Origin: a virus
Lineage: Duplodnaviria; Heunggongvirae; Uroviricota; Caudoviricetes
Length of the DNA stretch: 20,765 nt
Reading direction: 5' to 3' (one strand)
IMG/VR virus record: IMGVR_UViG_2703718852_000001
The position numbers were made by a program, and so were the translations under genes. Numbering within the stretch: the stretch's first letter is position 1; each line of letters begins with the position of its first letter. Positions 1,335-17,457 of this stretch are shown here, piece after piece. Below the pieces are notes generated by a model that did no database searches, was not told the DNA's origin, and saw nothing but the letters and a program-made list of their open reading frames with translations.

Positions 1335-1619
1335 TCAAGTAAGATGACGTCTTGGTCTCGCTGATGCCTGGCGCTCAATCCAGCGATCAATTTCTTCCAG
1401 GTTGTAAAAGCATGGACTGTTATCCCATGGCATACCGTCATGAGCGACATGCTTATATTCCCTTCCTTCCATAAACGATTTTTCCCGGGCCTTTTTTAAC
1501 GTACCTTTTTTTATTCCTTTCAGCGCAATTAACTGCTCTTCGGATACGCGGTGGAAGTGCTGCTGATGTCGAATCCTAGCGTGATGACTATGAAGCGGGA
1601 AAAACTCCGGTCGAAGCAT
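1335..1619 (-). CDS. Putative excisionase-like small protein (xis position), 94 aa or shorter
   Basis: ORF ends 19 nt upstream of the int start on the same strand, the slot xis occupies in lambdoid phages. Contains ..EGREYKHV.., reminiscent of the lambda Xis DGREY wing. Function is inferred; the true start may be an internal Met. Confidence 0.35.
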   Translation of the reverse strand: MLRPEFFPLHSHHARIRHQQHFHRVSEEQLIALKGIKKGTLKKAREKSFMEGREYKHVAHDGMPWDNSPCFYNLEEIDRWIERQASARPRRHLT

Positions 1620-1669
1620 ATTGTGATGAGTGGGGCGATGAATGAGCGAGATTAATTATCAGGAAGGGC

Positions 1670-1929
1670 ATGAAACGGCGGGGCAAGCAAAACCAGTGGC
1701 ATGGCGATATCGCTACGTGAAAAAAGGCGTTACGGACTTTCAGGGGAAGTAGTGGTCTGGTGACTGGAAATATGTACCGAAAAAAGAGGATTGTAACGAC
1801 AGGCCGAACTATCAAATTCAGGCCTTATTCACTGCCTCACCAGTCCCAGTTACATCAGAAGAACTGGTTAAAGCTGTGCACTTTTATGAACAACTAAAAC
1901 GCGAAAATCCACCAACATCCGGCAACTAG
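1670..1929 (+). pseudogene. Decayed gene remnant (serial frameshifts, no usable start for the longest frame)
   Basis: Three consecutive short open frames: ATG 1670 to TGA 1720, ATG 1701 to TGA 1763, and a start-less 58-codon frame 1753..1929 ending ..EELVKAVHFYEQLKRENPPTSGN. Consistent with a frameshifted pseudogene. Confidence 0.2.
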
Positions 1930-2183
1930 ATTAATGGATTAACTATGTCGGTTAAACGACCAGCCAACTGAAAAAGCGGAAACCTGATTACAGGTTGCCA
2001 GATAAGGCAATGAGCTACCTGGCGCGGAACGGACTGATAAGTATGGGGAATGTTTTACGATGAACCTTTAGACTAAAGAGTTTGTAACGCTATGTAAGTG
2101 ATTTTTTCTGGTTTAGATATTTATATGTCCGGCCAAATTGAGGTGTGTTTAAATGTAATTGCACATTGATTGTAGGAGGAATA

Positions 2184-2363
2184 ATGAAAAACGCATTGCA
2201 GTTTTTGTTTGTTGCGTTCTGGTTGTTCGCATCATGTATGCCCATCATCTTCACAGCAAGGTATATGGAAAAAGTTGATGTTTTGATATTAATATTTGGA
2301 TATATAAATGCCCTTTTTTTAGGGGTGTTCATGGCGGTCATGTGCATTGAATACTGGCGGTAA
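2184..2363 (+). CDS. Small hydrophobic (predicted two-helix membrane) protein, 59 aa
   Basis: Internal ATG at 2184 of track ORF 2145..2363, preceded by AGGAGG at 2174-2179. Translation MKNALQFLFVAFWLFASCMPIIFTARYMEKVDVLILIFGYINALFLGVFMAVMCIEYWR has two hydrophobic stretches. Lies in an AT-rich segment. Confidence 0.45.
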   Translation: MKNALQFLFVAFWLFASCMPIIFTARYMEKVDVLILIFGYINALFLGVFMAVMCIEYWR

Positions 2364-2559
2364 ATACAGCGAACTCCATTGGTTTAGTTGGATATTTACT
2401 GTGCTGGACAAAAACGGTTTGCGGGGAAATCTTAGTTAAGTAGAATGACTGCGGGTGCTTGAGGCTATCTGCCTCGGGCATGGACACCAACGGCAGATAG
2501 AGAAAAGCCCCAGTTAACATTACGCGTCCTGCAAGACGCTTAACATTAATCTGAGGCCA

Positions 2560-4260
2560 ATTTCATGCTAGACACATGTAGGTTAGCCTCTTACGTGCCG
2601 AAAGGCACGGAGAAGCAGGCTATTGTTAACACCAAGCTGTAATGTCCCCTTTGAACCATTCTAAAATGTCCCCAGACAATTCTCTGGGGGATTTTTCATG
2701 ATCAAAGAGACTGTTACGATGAGTCATAAGGAACTCCACCGACTTCAGATTATTCAGGAACAAGCTGCGGCACGCATTGGCATTTCTATTCGGCAGGTTA
2801 AACGTCTGGTGCAACGGTATAGAAATGAAGGGCCTTCTGGTCTGGTTTCCCACCGACGTGGAAAGCGTCCTAATAATTCCTTTTCTACTGAATTCAGAGC
2901 AACAGTAATTTCACTCCTCAAAGGCCGTTACGCTGATTTTGGACCTACGTTTGCGTGCGAAAAATTGCGCGAGATACACGGTTTATCTTTATCCGTTGAA
3001 ACTCTCAGAAAGTGGATGATAGAAGAGGGGTTATGGCGTGAACGCCGTCGTAAAATTGCCCGTATATATCAACGCCGCATGCGACGACCATCTTACGGTG
3101 AACTGATCCAGATTGATGGCTCACCTCATGACTGGTTTGAAAATCGAGGCCCCAGATGTACACTGATCGTTTTCATTGATGATGCCACCAGTGCGTTGAT
3201 GGCGTTGCGTTTTGTGCCTGCTGAAACAACCCGGGCTTACATGGAAACCCTCCGGGGTTACCTTAATGATCATGGCGTACCGCTCGCTCTCTACTCTGAT
3301 AGACACAGTATATTCAGGGTAAATAACCCAGAGCGGGAAGGTGAGCTGACCCAGTTCACTCGTGCGATAAAGACACTGGGCATCGAGCCAATCCATGCCA
3401 ACAGCCCGCAGGCAAAAGGGCGGGTAGAGCGCGCCAATCAGACACTACAGGACAGGCTGGTCAAAGAAATGCGGCTTCAGAATATCAGTGATATTGAAAC
3501 AGCAAATGCATGGTTGCCGACCTTTATTGAAGCCTATAACAACCGGTTCGCTACGTCGCCTCGTACTACTGATAATGCTCATCTTGATGTGCACCATTCT
3601 GAAGAGGAACTGGGTTATATCTTCAGCCTACAGGCGAAGCGCGTTCTGTCTAAAAATCTCACTTTCCAGTACAAAAGCAGTGCGTTTCAGGTACGCAGTG
3701 AGGGCCGGGGATATCGACTTAGGCATTCGGTTGTTACTGTATGCGAGAACTTTGACGGTGAAATTAACGTTCTGTATGACGGGAAAGCGCTGGGCTGGGA
3801 AAAGTATGTTGATGGCCCGGAGCCTATACCACTGGATGATGAAAAGAGTGTCCATGAACGAGTGGATAATGCCCGTATTGATTTACGCTCAAAATACTAT
3901 GTTAAACCTAAAGCTGACCATCCCTGGCTTACGCGCCGAACGCAAAGTCATCAGCAAGTTAAGCCCCCGAAGTTACCTAAAAAGAAGCCTGATCCCGATA
4001 AAAAAGATTGAAACCAAGATCGATTCGGTTGAGTGCATATCCATTCATAGGGTAGATTCTTAAGTCGCGTTTCTGGTGTTCATTTTCGGGTGGTTTGTTA
4101 CTTGTTTTACCGGGGATATGCCAGAAACGCGCTGAGTCAGTCTGGGCGGTGCGCGTAATGAGGCGTTATGGTAAATAGCCTATGCTAATGTCCGCTAAGA
4201 GCAAGAAGCGGAAGTTGGCAGTTTTGTGGACTGTCCCCACAAAAGTGACTACAGAAATAG
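2560..4260 (+). mobile_element. Insertion sequence carrying the IS481-like transposase; ends not resolved
   Basis: Single transposase ORF with flanking non-coding DNA; I could not identify convincing terminal inverted repeats or a target duplication by eye. Bounds are approximate. Confidence 0.3.
2698..4011 (+). CDS. DDE transposase, IS481-like (retroviral-integrase-type catalytic core), 437 aa
   Basis: Track ORF 2698..4011. N-terminal HTH region (..ISIRQVKRLVQRYRNEGPSGLVSHRRGKRP..) followed by DDE-type motifs (..QIDGSPHDW.., ..LYSDRHSIF.., ..ANSPQAKGRVERANQTL..), as in IS481/IS3-type transposases. Confidence 0.85.
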   Translation: MIKETVTMSHKELHRLQIIQEQAAARIGISIRQVKRLVQRYRNEGPSGLVSHRRGKRPNNSFSTEFRATVISLLKGRYADFGPTFACEKLREIHGLSLSVETLRKWMIEEGLWRERRRKIARIYQRRMRRPSYGELIQIDGSPHDWFENRGPRCTLIVFIDDATSALMALRFVPAETTRAYMETLRGYLNDHGVPLALYSDRHSIFRVNNPEREGELTQFTRAIKTLGIEPIHANSPQAKGRVERANQTLQDRLVKEMRLQNISDIETANAWLPTFIEAYNNRFATSPRTTDNAHLDVHHSEEELGYIFSLQAKRVLSKNLTFQYKSSAFQVRSEGRGYRLRHSVVTVCENFDGEINVLYDGKALGWEKYVDGPEPIPLDDEKSVHERVDNARIDLRSKYYVKPKADHPWLTRRTQSHQQVKPPKLPKKKPDPDKKD

Positions 4261-4404
4261 TTGCAATTCATAATTGATCATGGGTTGTCAGTTAAACTCG
4301 TGGCGATTTAAATAGACTAATTGGGAGTGCGTCCATTACTTATATCTTGTAATGTTAACTATCAGAAATGATACAAAGATAATATGTCTTTAAAGAAAAG
4401 GCTG

Positions 4405-4433
4405 ATGGCGAAAAGTGGCCCGATGAGGGCCAC
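4405..4433 (-). terminator. Intrinsic terminator downstream of flxA
   Basis: Perfect hairpin GTGGCCC-GATGA-GGGCCAC (4415-4433), followed on the minus strand by UUUUCGCC, 15 nt past the flxA stop. Confidence 0.5.
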
Positions 4434-4447
4434 AATACGGCTGTCAC

Positions 4448-4780
4448 TTAGACGTAAATATCAATGGTGCCAGCGGTATTTGTATCGTCTTTTTTCTCTT
4501 CTTTTTTATCAGGCTGAACTGTCGCGTCTTCATTCTTTTTCTCTGCCTGCTGCCTTAACAACTGCTCCAGTTGAGCCCAGAGGCTTTCAATTTGCTTCTG
4601 TACCAATGCAGCCATTTCTTTTTTCTGCTGTGTCGTCATCCCCTCTTCCGATGAGATTTTCCCAAGCTTTTCAGTCAGCACCTGAATTTGTCTTGTGATT
4701 TTGGCTATTTCTGATGTTCCTTCCGGGGCGGAGTTGTTTGAAATAACGGTTGAGGTATTTCCCTGAATTGTGACAGACAT
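4448..4780 (-). CDS. flxA: FlxA, FliA-regulated protein, 110 aa
   Basis: Track ORF 4448..4780 minus (MSVTIQGNTSTVISNN..., acidic/Lys-rich C-terminus). AAGGAG SD upstream; sigma-28 consensus promoter immediately upstream; synteny with ydfV-relBE as in Qin. Confidence 0.85.
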   Translation of the reverse strand: MSVTIQGNTSTVISNNSAPEGTSEIAKITRQIQVLTEKLGKISSEEGMTTQQKKEMAALVQKQIESLWAQLEQLLRQQAEKKNEDATVQPDKKEEKKDDTNTAGTIDIYV

Positions 4781-4803
4781 AGATTTCTCCTTTTAAAAAA
4801 GCA

Positions 4804-4830
4804 CTATCGGCATGCACAAAAAAATCTTTA
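4804..4830 (-). promoter_or_regulatory. Sigma-28 (FliA) class 3 flagellar-type promoter for flxA
   Basis: Minus strand reads TAAAGATT-N11-GCCGATAG, against the sigma-28 consensus TAAAGTTT-N11-GCCGATAA, positioned about 25-50 nt upstream of the flxA ATG. Confidence 0.6.
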
Positions 4831-4982
4831 ATCGTATTTCTTGTGTCATTAATTGTTTGATGTTCAGATTGTTTTCCTCGCGGGCTGGCGCGCCTCAGAA
4901 AGTAAAGCTTGTTGACAGGGGTAAACGTTCGGCAATAATTTTCTGCCGCATGCGGGTGTTGCATAAAACGTGTTACGTTCCT

Positions 4983-5288
4983 TTATCGACAGGTCAGGTC
5001 ACCGCTCACCCGCCGACGAGAAAGCAACACTGACATGCTAAAGCAAAAAATAGATGAATAAGTTGAGTTGTGCATATGTAGCCTGACCGTCACAAAGTAT
5101 ATGGTGTCTGTACCAGTAAGATGATGGCCGGACTCTTTAAAAACGAGCTGACCTGCACAATACAGGATGGACTTAGCAATGGCTGCTCCTGGCACAAAGC
5201 GGACAGTGATCACCGTTCTTACGACTACTTTCTGACTTCCTTCGTGACTTGCCCTAAGCATGTTGTAGTGCGATACTTGTAATGACAT
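4983..5288 (-). CDS. ydfV: Hypothetical protein (ydfV-like ORF), 101 aa; coding status doubtful
   Basis: Track ORF 4983..5288 minus. Its start codon lies inside the relBE operator palindrome, the sequence is low-complexity, and I saw no convincing SD. Confidence 0.3.
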   Translation of the reverse strand: MSLQVSHYNMLRASHEGSQKVVVRTVITVRFVPGAAIAKSILYCAGQLVFKESGHHLTGTDTIYFVTVRLHMHNSTYSSIFCFSMSVLLSRRRVSGDLTCR

Positions 5289-5301
5289 TTGTAATTACAA
5301 G
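5249..5301 (+). promoter_or_regulatory. relBE promoter and operator (relO)
   Basis: TTGCCC (5249-5254), 17-nt spacer, GATACT (5272-5277), overlapping the palindromic operator CTTGTAATGACATTTGTAATTACAAG (5276-5301) immediately upstream of relB. Confidence 0.7.
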
Positions 5302-5312
5302 AGGTGTAAGAC

Positions 5313-5552
5313 ATGGGTAGCATTAACCTGCGTATTGACGATGAACTTAAAGCGCGTTCTTACGCCGCGCTTGAAAAAATGGGTGTAACTCCTTCTGAAG
5401 CGCTTCGTCTCATGCTCGAGTATATCGCTGACAATGAACGCTTGCCGTTCAAACAGACACTCCTGAGTGATGAAGATGCTGAACTTGTGGAGATAGTGAA
5501 AGAACGGCTTCGTAATCCTAAGCCAGTACGTGTGACGCTGGATGAACTCTGA
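5313..5552 (+). CDS. relB: RelB antitoxin, 79 aa
   Basis: Translation MGSINLRIDDELKARSYAALEKMGVTPSEALRLMLEYIADNERLPFKQTLLSDEDAELVEIVKERLRNPKPVRVTLDEL recognised as RelB; stop overlaps the relE start (TGATG). Confidence 0.95.
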   Translation: MGSINLRIDDELKARSYAALEKMGVTPSEALRLMLEYIADNERLPFKQTLLSDEDAELVEIVKERLRNPKPVRVTLDEL

Positions 5553-5839
5553 TGGCGTATTTTCTGGATTTTGACGAGCGGGCACTAAAGGAATGGCGAA
5601 AGCTGGGCTCGACGGTACGTGAACAGTTGAAAAAGAAGCTGGTTGAAGTACTTGAGTCACCCCGGATTGAAGCAAACAAGCTCCGTGGTATGCCTGATTG
5701 TTACAAGATTAAGCTCCGGTCTTCAGGCTATCGCCTTGTATACCAGGTTATAGACGAGAAAGTTGTCGTTTTCGTGATTTCTGTTGGGAAAAGAGAACGC
5801 TCGGAAGTATATAGCGAGGCGGTCAAACGCATTCTCTGA
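5552..5839 (+). CDS. relE: RelE mRNA-interferase toxin, 95 aa
   Basis: Translation MAYFLDFDERALKEWRKLGSTVREQLKKKLVEVLESPRIEANKLRGMPDCYKIKLRSSGYRLVYQVIDEKVVVFVISVGKRERSEVYSEAVKRIL recognised as RelE; translationally coupled to relB. Confidence 0.95.
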   Translation: MAYFLDFDERALKEWRKLGSTVREQLKKKLVEVLESPRIEANKLRGMPDCYKIKLRSSGYRLVYQVIDEKVVVFVISVGKRERSEVYSEAVKRIL

Positions 5840-5910
5840 ACCAAAGCATGACATCTCTGTTTCGCACCGAAGGTGACACTTCTGCTTTGCGTTGACAGGA
5901 GAAGCAGGCT

Positions 5911-6066
5911 ATGAAGCAGCAAAAGGCGATGTTAATCGCCCTGATCGTCATCTGTTTAACCGTCATAGTGACGGCACTGGTAACGAGGAAAGACCTCTGC
6001 GAGGTACGAATCCGAACCGGCCAGACGGAGGTCGCTGTCTTCACAGCTTACGAACCTGAGGAGTAA
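5911..6066 (+). CDS. hokD: HokD (RelF) Hok-family membrane toxin, 51 aa
   Basis: ATG 5911 to TAA 6064-6066, translation MKQQKAMLIALIVICLTVIVTALVTRKDLCEVRIRTGQTEVAVFTAYEPEE. Not in the ORF track (below 60 aa). Directly downstream of relE. Confidence 0.9.
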   Translation: MKQQKAMLIALIVICLTVIVTALVTRKDLCEVRIRTGQTEVAVFTAYEPEE

Positions 6067-9463: not shown

Positions 9464-9630
9464 GATTGCGTCGGTTTGAAGAACAGACGATATACGAAGT
9501 AGTTTACTAAAGCAGTTCTCATTTCAGGTGTTATTCACTTATTCCTTCTTTGAGTCTCTCCAATTAAGTACGAAGTCGTTTCTGTTATGCAAACCATTTA
9601 TGCCGAAAGGCTCAAGTTAAGGAATGTAGA

Positions 9631-9846
9631 ATGTCAAATAAAATGACTGGTTTAGTAAAATGGTTTAACGCTGATAAAGGTTTCGGCTTTATTTCTCCTG
9701 TTGATGGTAGTAAAGATGTGTTTGTGCATTTTTCTGCGATTCAGAATGATAATTATCGAACCTTATTTGAAGGTCAAAAGGTTACCTTCTCTATAGAGAG
9801 TGGTGCTAAAGGTCCTGCAGCAGCAAATGTCATCATTACTGATTAA
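9631..9846 (+). CDS. cspB: Cold-shock protein CspB, 71 aa
   Basis: Translation [71 protein letters not shown] with RNP1/RNP2 motifs (KGFGFI, VFVHF). Confidence 0.95.
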
Positions 9847-9957
9847 AATTCATCGCTCGTCTGTATACGATAACGAAGAAGGCTGATGCCTGAGTAGAGA
9901 TACGGACAGAGTAGTGAATATTGGATCTCTTTAATAAAAAGTAAGGAGGTCCAATAC

Positions 9958-10380: not shown

Positions 10381-10599
10381 AGGCTTTTCCTGTATAAATG
10401 GCCGTATACAGTACACTAAATATGAAAACATTTCTCGTATTATTATTTTATATATGACTTTCTTTCAAAATAATTACCCACATTTTTAATGTGTATGTTT
10501 TTTTAGCGCCGTTGAGAACAACGTGTGCTGTCAAAACTACCCCGTAGACTCCGATCTTTTCAAACATATTGCACCATCCGTGTACATCGGGGTGAGGAT

Positions 10600-10815
10600 A
10601 TGAAATCAATGGATAAGTTAACAACAGGTGTTGCCTATGGCACATCGGCGGGTAATGCTGGTTTCTGGGCATTGCAGTTACTCGATAAAGTAACTCCGTC
10701 ACAGTGGGCTGCAATCGGTGTGCTGGGTAGCCTGGTTTTTGGCCTGCTGACGTATCTGACAAATCTTTATTTCAAGATTAAAGAAGACAGGCGTAAGGCT
10801 GCGAGAGGAGAGTAA
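10600..10815 (+). CDS. essQ: Holin (phage 21 S-type pinholin), 71 aa, dual-start motif
   Basis: ATG 10600 preceded by GGTGAGGA; translation [71 protein letters not shown] resembles the phage 21 pinholin. MKSM-DKL gives a holin/antiholin dual start. Track ORF extends upstream to 10525. Confidence 0.85.

Positions 10816-11127: not shown

Positions 11128-11131
<4 letters not shown>
10820..11131 (+). CDS. ydfR: YdfR, DUF1327-type prophage protein, 103 aa
   Basis: Track ORF 10820..11131, between holin and endolysin; start 5 nt after the essQ stop with GAGAGGAGAG SD. Confidence 0.75.
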
Positions 11132-12155
<1,024 letters not shown>

Positions 12156-12367: not shown

Positions 12368-12517
12368 GTGTTCTGGTTTGTTACAAATTTATCTGAAGCA
12401 GTCATTGTTATAATTTTATTATTTGTACCTCTTGAGATTTCCTTGTTGGTTTTTCTCTCTGATATTTTTTTTCGGACCATTCTGCCCAAGGGCTAATTTC
12501 TTCAAAAGGTAATAATT

Positions 12518-12730
12518 ATGTCTAACAAAATGACTGGTTTAGTGAAATGGTTTAACCCTGAAAAAGGTTTTGGTTTCATCACGCCGAAAGATGGCAGCAA
12601 AGATGTGTTTGTCCATTTCTCAGCAATTCAGAGCAACGATTTCAAAACATTAACTGAGAATCAGGAAGTTGAATTTGGTATTGAGAACGGACCTAAAGGT
12701 CCTGCCGCTGTTCATGTAGTGGCGCTTTGA
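12518..12730 (+). CDS. cspI: Cold-shock protein CspI, 70 aa
   Basis: Translation [70 protein letters not shown] recognised as CspI. Confidence 0.95.
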
Positions 12731-12929
12731 GGTAGACAATATTACAAACCATATTCACTTTAGATGCCCGTGTTGTCATGGTTCCCAGTATAGAACATCA
12801 TCTTTTGATGTTTCTGACATGAATCCTTTCGGGGCAAAATGTATCTTTTGTAAATCAATGATGATTACATTTGATAATATTTCACAATACTTAAATGCCA
12901 GCCGTCTGTCGTTGGATTTAAAAAAGTGA
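12720..12929 (+). pseudogene. Start-less zinc-ribbon ORF, paralog of the 10210-10380 protein; probably frameshifted
   Basis: Open frame ..HIHFRCPCCHGSQYRTSSFDVSDMNPFGAKCIFCKSMMITFDNISQYLNASRLSLDLKK ending TGA 12927-12929. No ATG/GTG/TTG precedes the first Cys pair. An ATG at 12764 is out of frame by 1 nt at a CCC run. The CxC(x)C...CxxC spacing aligns with the 10210-10380 protein. Confidence 0.35.
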
Positions 12930-16882: not shown

Positions 16883-17457
16883 TGGCATTCAGAATGAGTG
16901 AACAACCACGGACCATAAAAATTTATAATCTGCTGGCCGGAACTAATGAATTTATTGGTGAAGGTGATGCATATATTCCGCCTCATACAGGTCTGCCAGC
17001 AAACAGTACCGATATTGCACCGCCAGATATTCCGGCTGGCTTCGTGGCTGTTTTCAACAGTGATGAGTCATCGTGGCATCTCGTTGAAGATCATCGGGGT
17101 AAAACGGTTTATGACGTGGCTTCCGGCGACGCGTTATTTATTTCTGAACTCGGTCCGTTACCGGAAAATGTTACCTGGTTATCGCCGGAAGGGGAGTTTC
17201 AGAAGTGGAACGGCACAGCCTGGGTGAAGGATACGGAAGCAGAAAAACTGTTCCGGATCCGGGAGGCGGAAGAAACAAAAAACAACCTGATGCAGGTAGC
17301 CAGTGAGCATATTGCGCCGCTTCAGGATGCTGCAGATCTGGAAATTGCAACGGAGGAAGAAATCTCGTTGCTGGAAGCATGGAAAAAGTATCGGGTATTG
17401 CTGAACCGTGTTGATACGTCAACTGCACAGGATATTGAATGGCCAGCACTGCCGTAG
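16882..17457 (+). CDS. tfaQ: Tail fibre assembly protein Tfa, 191 aa
   Basis: Track ORF 16882..17457; ATGA overlap with the stf stop; Tfa-like sequence ([28 protein letters not shown]...). Confidence 0.9.

Follow-up and report, generated by a model that had tools for sequence, protein, structure and literature searches.

On comparative sequence evidence, a 59-codon open reading frame (ORF) on the plus strand of a 20,765-nt stretch of Caudoviricetes DNA (IMG/VR record IMGVR_UViG_2703718852_000001) is a genuine protein-coding gene, and the ORF that overlaps it on the opposite strand is not. The frame is named ORF59 here and the whole stretch is called the window; all coordinates are window positions unless a comparison locus, with a name in L, is given. 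That ORF59 (2184-2363) is a real gene and that its product, MKNALQFLFVAFWLFASCMPIIFTARYMEKVDVLILIFGYINALFLGVFMAVMCIEYWR, folds as a helical hairpin is very probable. The overall statement, i.e., that it is the real gene of a small two-helix membrane protein whose function is left open, is put forward with somewhat less assurance, as probable. Judged from its sequence, ORF59 is an orphan among the small membrane proteins of prophages, overlooked by the RefSeq annotation in all the records inspected.

An earlier note on this DNA, made from the letters alone, had described a Shine-Dalgarno (SD) motif in front of the ATG at 2184 and a product of 59 aa, and both are as it described them (Table 1), although what the letters show would not by itself be enough to prove a gene. 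Other parts of its reading, in particular those on the neighborhood and the origin of the gene, look different in the light of related genomes.

ORF59 as a coding sequence

ORF59 belongs to a small family. Its close copies (at least 98% identity) make up subfamily A and occur in 1569 of the 5426 complete E. coli genomes (∼29%). In a word-indexed protein search with ORF59, only E. coli and Shigella proteins were found at 74% identity or more, and the matches of lower identity were all truncated or frameshifted variants. A phmmer search against 1.84 billion representatives added one distant relative, the protein P0037, which is also 59 aa long and aligns end to end and without gaps at 41% identity (E value 1.2e-8). 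P0037, P0042, and their relatives form subfamily B, which is encoded, without annotation, between ttcA and uspF (the Rac attachment region) in 1045 of the 5426 genomes (∼19%). No third subfamily emerged from a profile search with both subfamilies, and an alignment-based rescan of viral contigs returned the same loci. As these searches have it, the family consists of two subfamilies, restricted to the lambdoid prophages of Escherichia and Shigella and to their remnants. A homology check of the BLASTP or HHpred type had been proposed in the earlier note; in this form it has brought relatives, namely subfamily B, and no match to known families.

The coding assignment is carried by the comparison of the two subfamilies. 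Their coding sequences (CDSs) have identical starts and stops and align without gaps. Nucleotide identity at codon positions 1, 2, and 3 is 0.58, 0.71, and 0.47, respectively; position 2 is the best conserved and position 3 the worst, so that the ORF59 frame has the appearance of a coding one. With the Nei-Gojobori method, the proportion of nonsynonymous differences (pN) is 0.34 and that of synonymous differences (pS) is 0.72, a ratio of ∼0.19 after Jukes-Cantor correction, and the contrast between the two classes is significant (Fisher p = 8.7e-5). This substitution pattern is absent from all five other frames. In addition, base composition is periodic over three nucleotides in the ORFs of subfamily A (p 0.015) and subfamily B (p 0.04), in contrast to their flanks (0.47 and 0.30), and the alignment of the two subfamilies has no insertions or deletions (indels) in the CDS against ∼6 in the 150-nt 5′ flank. 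When neutral divergence of the observed size was simulated, an ORF of identical length with start and stop retained was left in 0.25% of the runs.

Subfamily A can also be examined on its own, in 84 loci that represent 28 haplotypes. The ATG and the TAA are present in 84 of 84, and the SD reads AGGAGG in 68 of these loci and AGGGGG in the other 16. Within 2000-2623, ORF59 is the least polymorphic segment, with 2.8% of sites varying versus 7.7-37% elsewhere; compared with the immediate flanks, the counts are 5 polymorphic sites of 180 versus 17 of 206 (p 0.026). The earlier note had let its reading depend on conservation in related elements. The gene is indeed kept there, also in a paralog that is 41% identical and shows coding-type substitutions.

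Could ORF59 nevertheless be a chance ORF in a T-rich, noncoding spacer that runs from the nin genes to hok/sok, its hydrophobicity being a by-product of T-rich codons? A number of observations weigh against a gene, and several of them would fit such an ORF. Length by itself is not significant, since 9.5% of the shuffled versions of 2040-2460 contain an ORF that starts with ATG and reaches at least 59 aa on either strand. A strict scan upstream of ORF59 found no sigma-70-like promoter (at least 9 of 12 matches). No match to ORF59 was found in Pfam (E ≤ 0.1), in PHROGs or PADLOC (E ≤ 1), or in NCBIfam, and the peptide sequences of the family gave no match in a full-text literature search. RefSeq, with the Prokaryotic Genome Annotation Pipeline (PGAP), annotates nothing at the family matches in any of the 55 rows inspected; GenBank submissions and UniProt list the product as “hypothetical protein” or “membrane protein” (e.g., A0A1Q9L2W4 and A0A2S5RMW9). 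All five polymorphisms of ORF59 in subfamily A are nonsynonymous and none is synonymous; they are conservative, I37M and Y40H being changes to the residues of subfamily B, and with five sites, all of one kind, the dN/dS ratio (nonsynonymous to synonymous) within the subfamily is uninformative. Frameshifted alleles and alleles interrupted by insertion sequences (ISs) occur. Lastly, the selection test is one pairwise comparison with saturated synonymous sites, and it involves two subfamilies of one genus.

Against a chance ORF stands the fact that, with the nucleotide sequences diverged by 41%, the paralog still has a length of exactly 59 codons (neutral survival 0.0025). The codon-position pattern and the excess of pS over pN are confined to the ORF59 frame, and indels spare the CDS and not the flanks. 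Nor is the T-richness uniform: T makes up 37, 53, and 24% of codon positions 1, 2, and 3, respectively, and the GC content of third positions (GC3) is 0.50, values that are specific to the frame. Overall, a chance ORF is an improbable explanation, and the one retained here is that of a coding gene.

Another candidate for the true gene of this region is the antisense ORF of 85 aa. It is the longest ORF present and the one called in three phage records: PV340562.1 (10959-11210), ON470612.1 (23105-23356), and ON470619. However, the same frame of the paralog is interrupted by two stops, and pN is close to pS (0.40 and 0.44). Its ATG is not preceded by an SD, and the product would be a low-complexity peptide rich in Asn, Lys, and Ile, with no family matches. 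The chance that this ORF is the gene is very close to nil; because the antisense frame is not conserved in the paralog, the phage records carry a wrong-strand annotation.

With regard to the product, the earlier note had seen an almost entirely hydrophobic protein with two helices, and the predictions agree. The grand average of hydropathy (GRAVY) is 1.27, and two Kyte-Doolittle maxima are separated by the polar loop ARYMEKVD. The AlphaFold2 (AF2) model, built from a seven-sequence alignment, has helices at residues 2-24 and 30-58, with a mean predicted local distance difference test (pLDDT) score of 71. Many of the residues are invariant in both subfamilies: W13, S17, C18, P20, I21, I22, and T24 in helix 1, and L36, F38, G39, N42, A43, L44, V48, F49, E56, W58, and R59 in helix 2 and the C-terminus. 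The pattern G39-xxx-A43-xxx-G47, together with N42, creates a small and polar face along helix 2.

A second possible fate of the protein is written in helix 1. Residues 15-18 form a lipobox-like motif, [FV][AI]S-C, which is conserved in subfamilies A and B together with K/R at the N-terminus. In the PROSITE-type lipobox rule, a Cys at residues 15-35 follows an n-region that contains K/R and a hydrophobic h-region. Both subfamilies show this arrangement, versus only 1.4-1.7% of helix 1 shuffles. The conserved S17-C18 pair thus counts against the hairpin, as mature ORF59 might be a one-helix lipoprotein. Positions +2 to +8 after C18, in turn, are hydrophobic, which argues against lipoprotein processing.

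Not all copies of ORF59 are intact. A run of seven T within the CDS, followed by A and GGGG (2314-2325), is the point of +1 frameshift in the proteins P0022, P0024, P0025, and P0019; such variants come mostly from automated read assemblies and could be sequencing errors or slippage. Many independent truncations (P0026-P0035 and P0038) map to codons 22-40, at ∼2250-2300, and one truncated protein finishes in the terminal sequence of IS1 (GDAANLLI). Copies of IS1 disrupt 1900-2700 in several genomes, and the AT-rich stretch of ORF59 looks like an insertion hot spot.

One further locus was considered as a diverged, frame-broken homolog and rejected: L086 (CP178302.1, strain ECMA0423), a species representative in the genome collection. 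Over 2000-2623 it departs from every other copy by indels that come in clusters and by short motifs that are scrambled; this looks like poor assembly rather than divergence, and the locus was left out of the analysis.

Table 1. Features of the ORF59 region and of the neighboring hok/sok locus (window positions, except for the last row)
Feature	Position	Strand	Basis or remark
Junction of int/xis module (left) and Qin-type nin region (right)	1545-1547	.	BLAST, genome search
Frameshifted remnant of upstream nin-region gene	1642-2063	+	PGAP pseudogene in ATCC 8739
ORF59 cassette (5′ leader, CDS, ∼40 nt of 3′ flank), homologous in both subfamilies	2049-2400	+	Alignment with L089 7856-8225
Antisense 85-aa ORF, not coding	2090-2347	−	Paralog comparison; “hornerin” or “hypothetical protein” in phage records
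SD AGGAGG	2174-2179	+	Sequence; spacer AATA (4 nt) before ATG
ORF59 CDS, subfamily A, 59 codons and stop	2184-2363	+	ATG 2184-2186, TAA 2361-2363
Predicted helix 1, residues 2-24	2187-2255	+	AF2 model, subfamily alignment
Lipobox-like F-A-S-C, residues 15-18	2226-2237	+	Lipobox rule check
Short polar loop ARYME (wider stretch ARYMEKVD)	2256-2270	+	AF2 model, hydropathy
Predicted helix 2, residues 30-58	2271-2357	+	AF2 model, subfamily alignment
T7 homopolymer within ORF59 CDS	2314-2320	+	Sequence; site of +1 frameshift variants
Probable hok promoter (TTGCGG, 16 nt, TAGAAT)	2419-2446	+	Relaxed promoter scan
hok/sok 5′ leader (fold-back end, mok start, Sok region)	2453-2623	+	Rfam RF01794
15-bp direct repeat, left copy	2609-2623	+	Repeat search, perfect match
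3274-nt insertion: ISNCY/IS1202-like transposase, ydfW, flxA(−), ydfV(−), relB, relE	2624-5897	+	
ISNCY/IS1202-like (ISEsa1-family) transposase	2698-4011		Within 3274-nt insertion
15-bp direct repeat, right copy	5898-5912	+	Gives SD and “AT” of hokD ATG
hokD CDS, 3′ half of same hok locus	5911-6066	+	Pfam HOK_GEF 1.2e-23 for 5911-6063
Subfamily B paralog gene	L089 8001-8180 (also L087-L095)		ttcA/uspF remnant

Native context and composition

Where does ORF59 belong? The earlier note had placed it between xis and an IS, next to an integrase module. By coordinates the first statement is right, except that it missed the hok/sok leader (2453-2623), which stands between ORF59 and the IS; the direct downstream neighbor of ORF59 is this leader, not the IS. 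The second statement does not survive the comparison with other genomes. The junction at 1545-1547 that brings the int/xis module close to ORF59 was found in 0 of the 5426 complete E. coli genomes and in 0 of 85 related loci, and where these genomes carry the module (1-1547), it is kilobases distant from the ORF59 region. As the junction is absent from all of them, the closeness of the integrase is probably the outcome of a local deletion and not a design feature. The junction may have arisen when one strain lost the entire early region, or it may be a join made in assembly. In the 94-aa “xis” ORF (1335-1619), the first ∼25 codons are contributed by the nin side, and the Pfam domain DUF1233 spans residues 25-84 only.

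From 1545 rightwards, BLAST finds the window collinear with Qin-type lambdoid prophages and phages, such as those of ATCC 8739, PhiR42_1, and vB_EcoS-640R1. The native order is dicA/dicC, the replication genes, LygF, a methyltransferase, small nin-type genes, ORF59, hok/sok, rem, ydfU, and Q. Going by this collinearity, the native site of ORF59 is in the delayed-early region, after the replication/nin genes and before the Q antiterminator, in the orientation of that operon. The nin-region gene whose remnant precedes ORF59 in the window is an intact 85-aa ORF in vB_EcoS-640R1 (L003 5514-5771).

A related point concerns composition, which the earlier note had taken as a sign of separate acquisition. 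The region is AT-richer than its surroundings, as claimed (35.4% GC for 2090-2400 versus 44.6% for the whole window), but the dip is ordinary: an equal or higher AT content is reached by 10% of all 311-nt segments in the 20.7 kb. The GC content of ORF59 at codon positions 1, 2, and 3 is 0.33, 0.28, and 0.50, and GC3 in the neighboring prophage genes is 0.35-0.52. Given a GC3 at the top of the range of its neighbors, the low GC of ORF59 comes from its codons for Phe, Ile, Leu, Met, and Tyr and from an AT-rich 5′ leader. In related phages, homology is unbroken over 1545-2623, with no break at 2090 or 2400. The AT-richness is no sign of separate acquisition.

The extent of the unit can be read from the paralog. 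In this comparison, the block of ∼360 nt at 2049-2400 acts as a unit, and the local alignment of the 5′ flank with the paralog locus scores 48, versus 30.7 ± 4.6 for shuffles. Homology with the hok modules of Shiga toxin (Stx) phages begins only at ∼2406; hence, ORF59 is a discrete cassette that does not belong to the generic hok module. The reading of this region is thus corrected on three points: its strand, the relevance of the integrase, and its supposed foreign composition.

Elsewhere in the window, cspA-thermoregulator matches at 9470-9862 and 12372-12757 belong to prophage cold-shock genes of the cspB/cspI type, and an IS009 RNA-family match lies at 17225-17423, in the tail-fiber assembly region.

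A split hok/sok locus downstream of ORF59

The hok/sok leader that follows ORF59 is matched by the Rfam sok family (RF01794) at 2453-2624 with 104 bits, versus a gathering score of 59, and it is broken off right before the G of the hok ATG. In vB_EcoS-640R1 (L003), the same match continues into an intact mok/hok, and the Hok of this phage is identical to HokD. In the window, the two halves of the locus are separated by the 3274-nt insertion, which is bordered by two copies of the 15-bp repeat GGAGAAGCAGGCTAT. The insertion is absent from L003, L005, L022, L053, and others, in which 2623 joins 5897 directly. Its terminal inverted repeats are imperfect, with ∼23 of 31 positions matching by eye.

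The same insertion sheds light on E. coli K-12, whose homology with the window starts at 3827, within the ISNCY transposase gene. K-12 keeps only the part from 3827 onwards, and this would be why its hokD is found without mok or sok. On the alignments, the relBE-hokD (relF) arrangement of K-12 can be explained by a 3.3-kb insertion into the start-codon region of an intact hok/sok locus, and the leader and Sok region left stranded upstream can be explained by the same event. The K-12 genes ydfW (intK) and ydfX sit at the deletion scar (window 3827-4450) and do not look like independent genes.

What moved into hok is less simple to define. ISEsa1 is listed as 1609 bp long and without target duplication (PMC10132070). 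By contrast, 3274 nt lie between the duplicated 15-mers. The element occurs in one copy and its context does not vary; consequently, it can be called at most a putative mobile unit. For researchers working on toxin-antitoxin systems, this account of relBE-hokD is possibly of more interest than ORF59.

How closely are ORF59 and hok tied? In subfamily A, the start of the hok mRNA is 90 nt from ORF59, on the same strand. Subfamily B lies inside an AT-rich, decayed prophage remnant, ∼0.7 kb from an integrase fragment. Besides a hok fragment, this remnant holds sit (ABC-3) fragments, and the 59-aa gene is its sole intact ORF. The hok fragment begins ∼55 nt past the stop of the paralog and covers 21 codons with an internal stop; it is 57% identical to HokD residues 24-44, its DNA is 80% identical, and neither a leader nor a sok accompanies it. 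A hok fragment after the paralog and hok/sok after subfamily A together indicate a shared ancestry, so that both subfamilies, by their sequences, descend from an ORF59-then-hok order. The linkage may stand for co-inheritance or for a functional link, or ORF59 may have hitch-hiked on an addiction module while the prophage decayed.

A functional link would make ORF59 a modulator, immunity factor, or membrane partner of the adjacent Hok, the two acting as one module. In both subfamilies the gene is immediately followed by a HokC/D-type hok in the same orientation, in subfamily B as judged from the fragment, and no terminator separates ORF59 from hok. However, the hok modules of Stx phages do without ORF59, plain co-inheritance or hitch-hiking may suffice for the linkage, and ORF59 has outlasted the destruction of hok in subfamily B and its splitting in the window, which speaks against strict dependence on Hok. 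Action through Hok is accordingly regarded as improbable. A neighboring idea, that ORF59 and the HokC/D-type hok are one co-inherited two-protein membrane module, is likewise judged unlikely. Within such a module, ORF59 could kill in addition to Hok, partner it in immunity or gating, or give rise, through LspA cleavage at C18, to a lipid-anchored peptide with one helix. If this were true, some hok/sok loci of prophages would include a protein component that has not been recognized so far, and a new family of small membrane effectors would be at hand. In the part of a recent Hok survey consulted here (bioRxiv 10.1101/2025.08.07.668861), no ORF upstream of hok is mentioned.

Possible roles and known families

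The preferred reading remains that of a membrane protein gene in its own right, and the question is then how it would be expressed and what it would do. For subfamily A, a relaxed scan returned only weak promoter candidates. Because the region itself has neither a strong promoter nor a terminator, the expression of ORF59 would depend on the early rightward transcript, which would read through it upon induction. Subfamily B may instead be transcribed from a possible extended −10 promoter: the perfect match TGATATAAT has its hexamer from L089 7921, ∼75 nt upstream of the gene. The relaxed scan found no conserved antisense promoter at ORF59. A structured RNA was also considered, and it is ruled out by the fold z-scores (−1.15 for the plus strand, 0.28 for the minus strand, and 0.14 for the paralog), along with the absence of an Rfam match in 1950-2460 at E ≤ 1.

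As for the protein, the K/R at the N-terminus and an acidic loop in subfamily B suggest a topology with both termini in the cytoplasm (N-in/C-in). The small and polar face of helix 2 (G39, N42, A43, and G47) would mediate helix packing or oligomerization. In the inner membrane, ORF59 might then be an accessory factor that perturbs the integrity or energetics of the membrane, in the manner of a toxin, a holin, or an abortive-infection protein. Alternatively, it might bind a membrane machine of the host, as an exclusion protein would. The best guess, and a tentative one, is that ORF59 is a membrane-active effector or accessory protein.

Two more specific roles, both of a kind raised as speculation in the earlier note, can be weighed. 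The first is that of a membrane toxin in a toxin-antitoxin-like or abortive-infection module, akin to Hok or to GhoT/OrtT, silent until induction or infection. Size and a hydrophobic two-helix architecture are in favor of it, as is the concentration of toxin genes around it (hok/sok, relBE, and rem), and so are the several independent IS and frameshift disruptions of ORF59. The latter lose some of their weight because AT-rich DNA is commonly targeted by IS1 anyway. Moreover, no candidate antitoxin gene adjoins ORF59, neither an antisense RNA nor a structured leader was detected (an undescribed small RNA may exist), and no match to PADLOC or to the GhoT/OrtT and Hok families of Pfam was found. 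A toxin is thus rather unlikely. The second role is superinfection exclusion, in which ORF59, after the example of T4 Imm and HK97 gp15, would act at the inner membrane to keep DNA from entering or to obstruct a receptor or a transport component. A small, prophage-borne, predicted inner-membrane protein suits this role, and subfamily B has stayed intact, with its extended −10 promoter, amid an otherwise decayed remnant. Homology to known exclusion proteins is lacking, though, and subfamily A has no promoter for expression in the lysogen; exclusion, too, must be called rather unlikely.

Small membrane proteins systematically escape annotation. The coding case made for ORF59 adds a candidate membrane effector of prophages, located beside a well-studied toxin locus.

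How does ORF59 compare with known systems? A sequence search of the PDB gave no relative, and Foldseek of the model against BFVD and the PDB returned only generic helical hairpins with E > 0.4. As far as its sequence goes, no membership can be claimed in Hok/Gef, GhoT/OrtT, the holins, or the known defense and exclusion proteins. The likenesses and differences are nonetheless instructive. Hok/Gef proteins, HokD in particular, are also small, hydrophobic, carried by prophages, and at home in the inner membrane, and hokD is a neighbor in the same orientation. A Hok protein consists of a single helix with a Cys-bearing tail in the periplasm and is regulated through mok, Sok, and a folded mRNA, whereas ORF59 is predicted to have two helices, with no HOK_GEF match (PF01848), no Rfam match, and no unusually stable fold. 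T4 Imm, HK97 gp15, and lambda SieB are small phage-encoded proteins of the inner membrane, as ORF59 is predicted to be, and no homology with them is detectable.

With lipoproteins such as Rz1, Cor, and the entericidins, ORF59 shares the N-terminal K/R, the hydrophobic stretch, and the [FV][AI]S-C lipobox. It differs from them in that the sequence after the Cys is hydrophobic, the AF2 helix continues through it (residues 2-24), and a second predicted transmembrane helix follows. Processing to a lipid-anchored, one-helix peptide is possible.

The closest parallels are found among two-helix proteins. GhoT, the toxin of a type V toxin-antitoxin system, and the orphan toxin OrtT have 57 aa and two transmembrane helices; their length is nearly that of ORF59, and the predicted helical-hairpin architecture is the same. 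No sequence relation connects them with ORF59 (Pfam, E ≤ 0.1), and no GhoS-like neighbor is present. Class II holins and the pinholin S21 68 of phage 21, with two transmembrane segments in ∼60-70 aa, resemble the predicted ORF59 protein, and the pinholin also has a face of small residues (Gly/Ala/Ser) on helix 2. In contrast to holins, ORF59 lies outside the lysis cassette, which in this prophage is 8 kb away (a P21-type Phage_holin_2_1 at 10525-10812, a lysozyme at 11128-11658, and an Rz-like gene at 11658-12152); its C-terminus is only IEYWR, without a charged tail, and it has no holin match in Pfam or PHROGs. By architecture, and as an analogy only, GhoT/OrtT-type two-helix toxins and class II holins are the known proteins to which ORF59 comes nearest.

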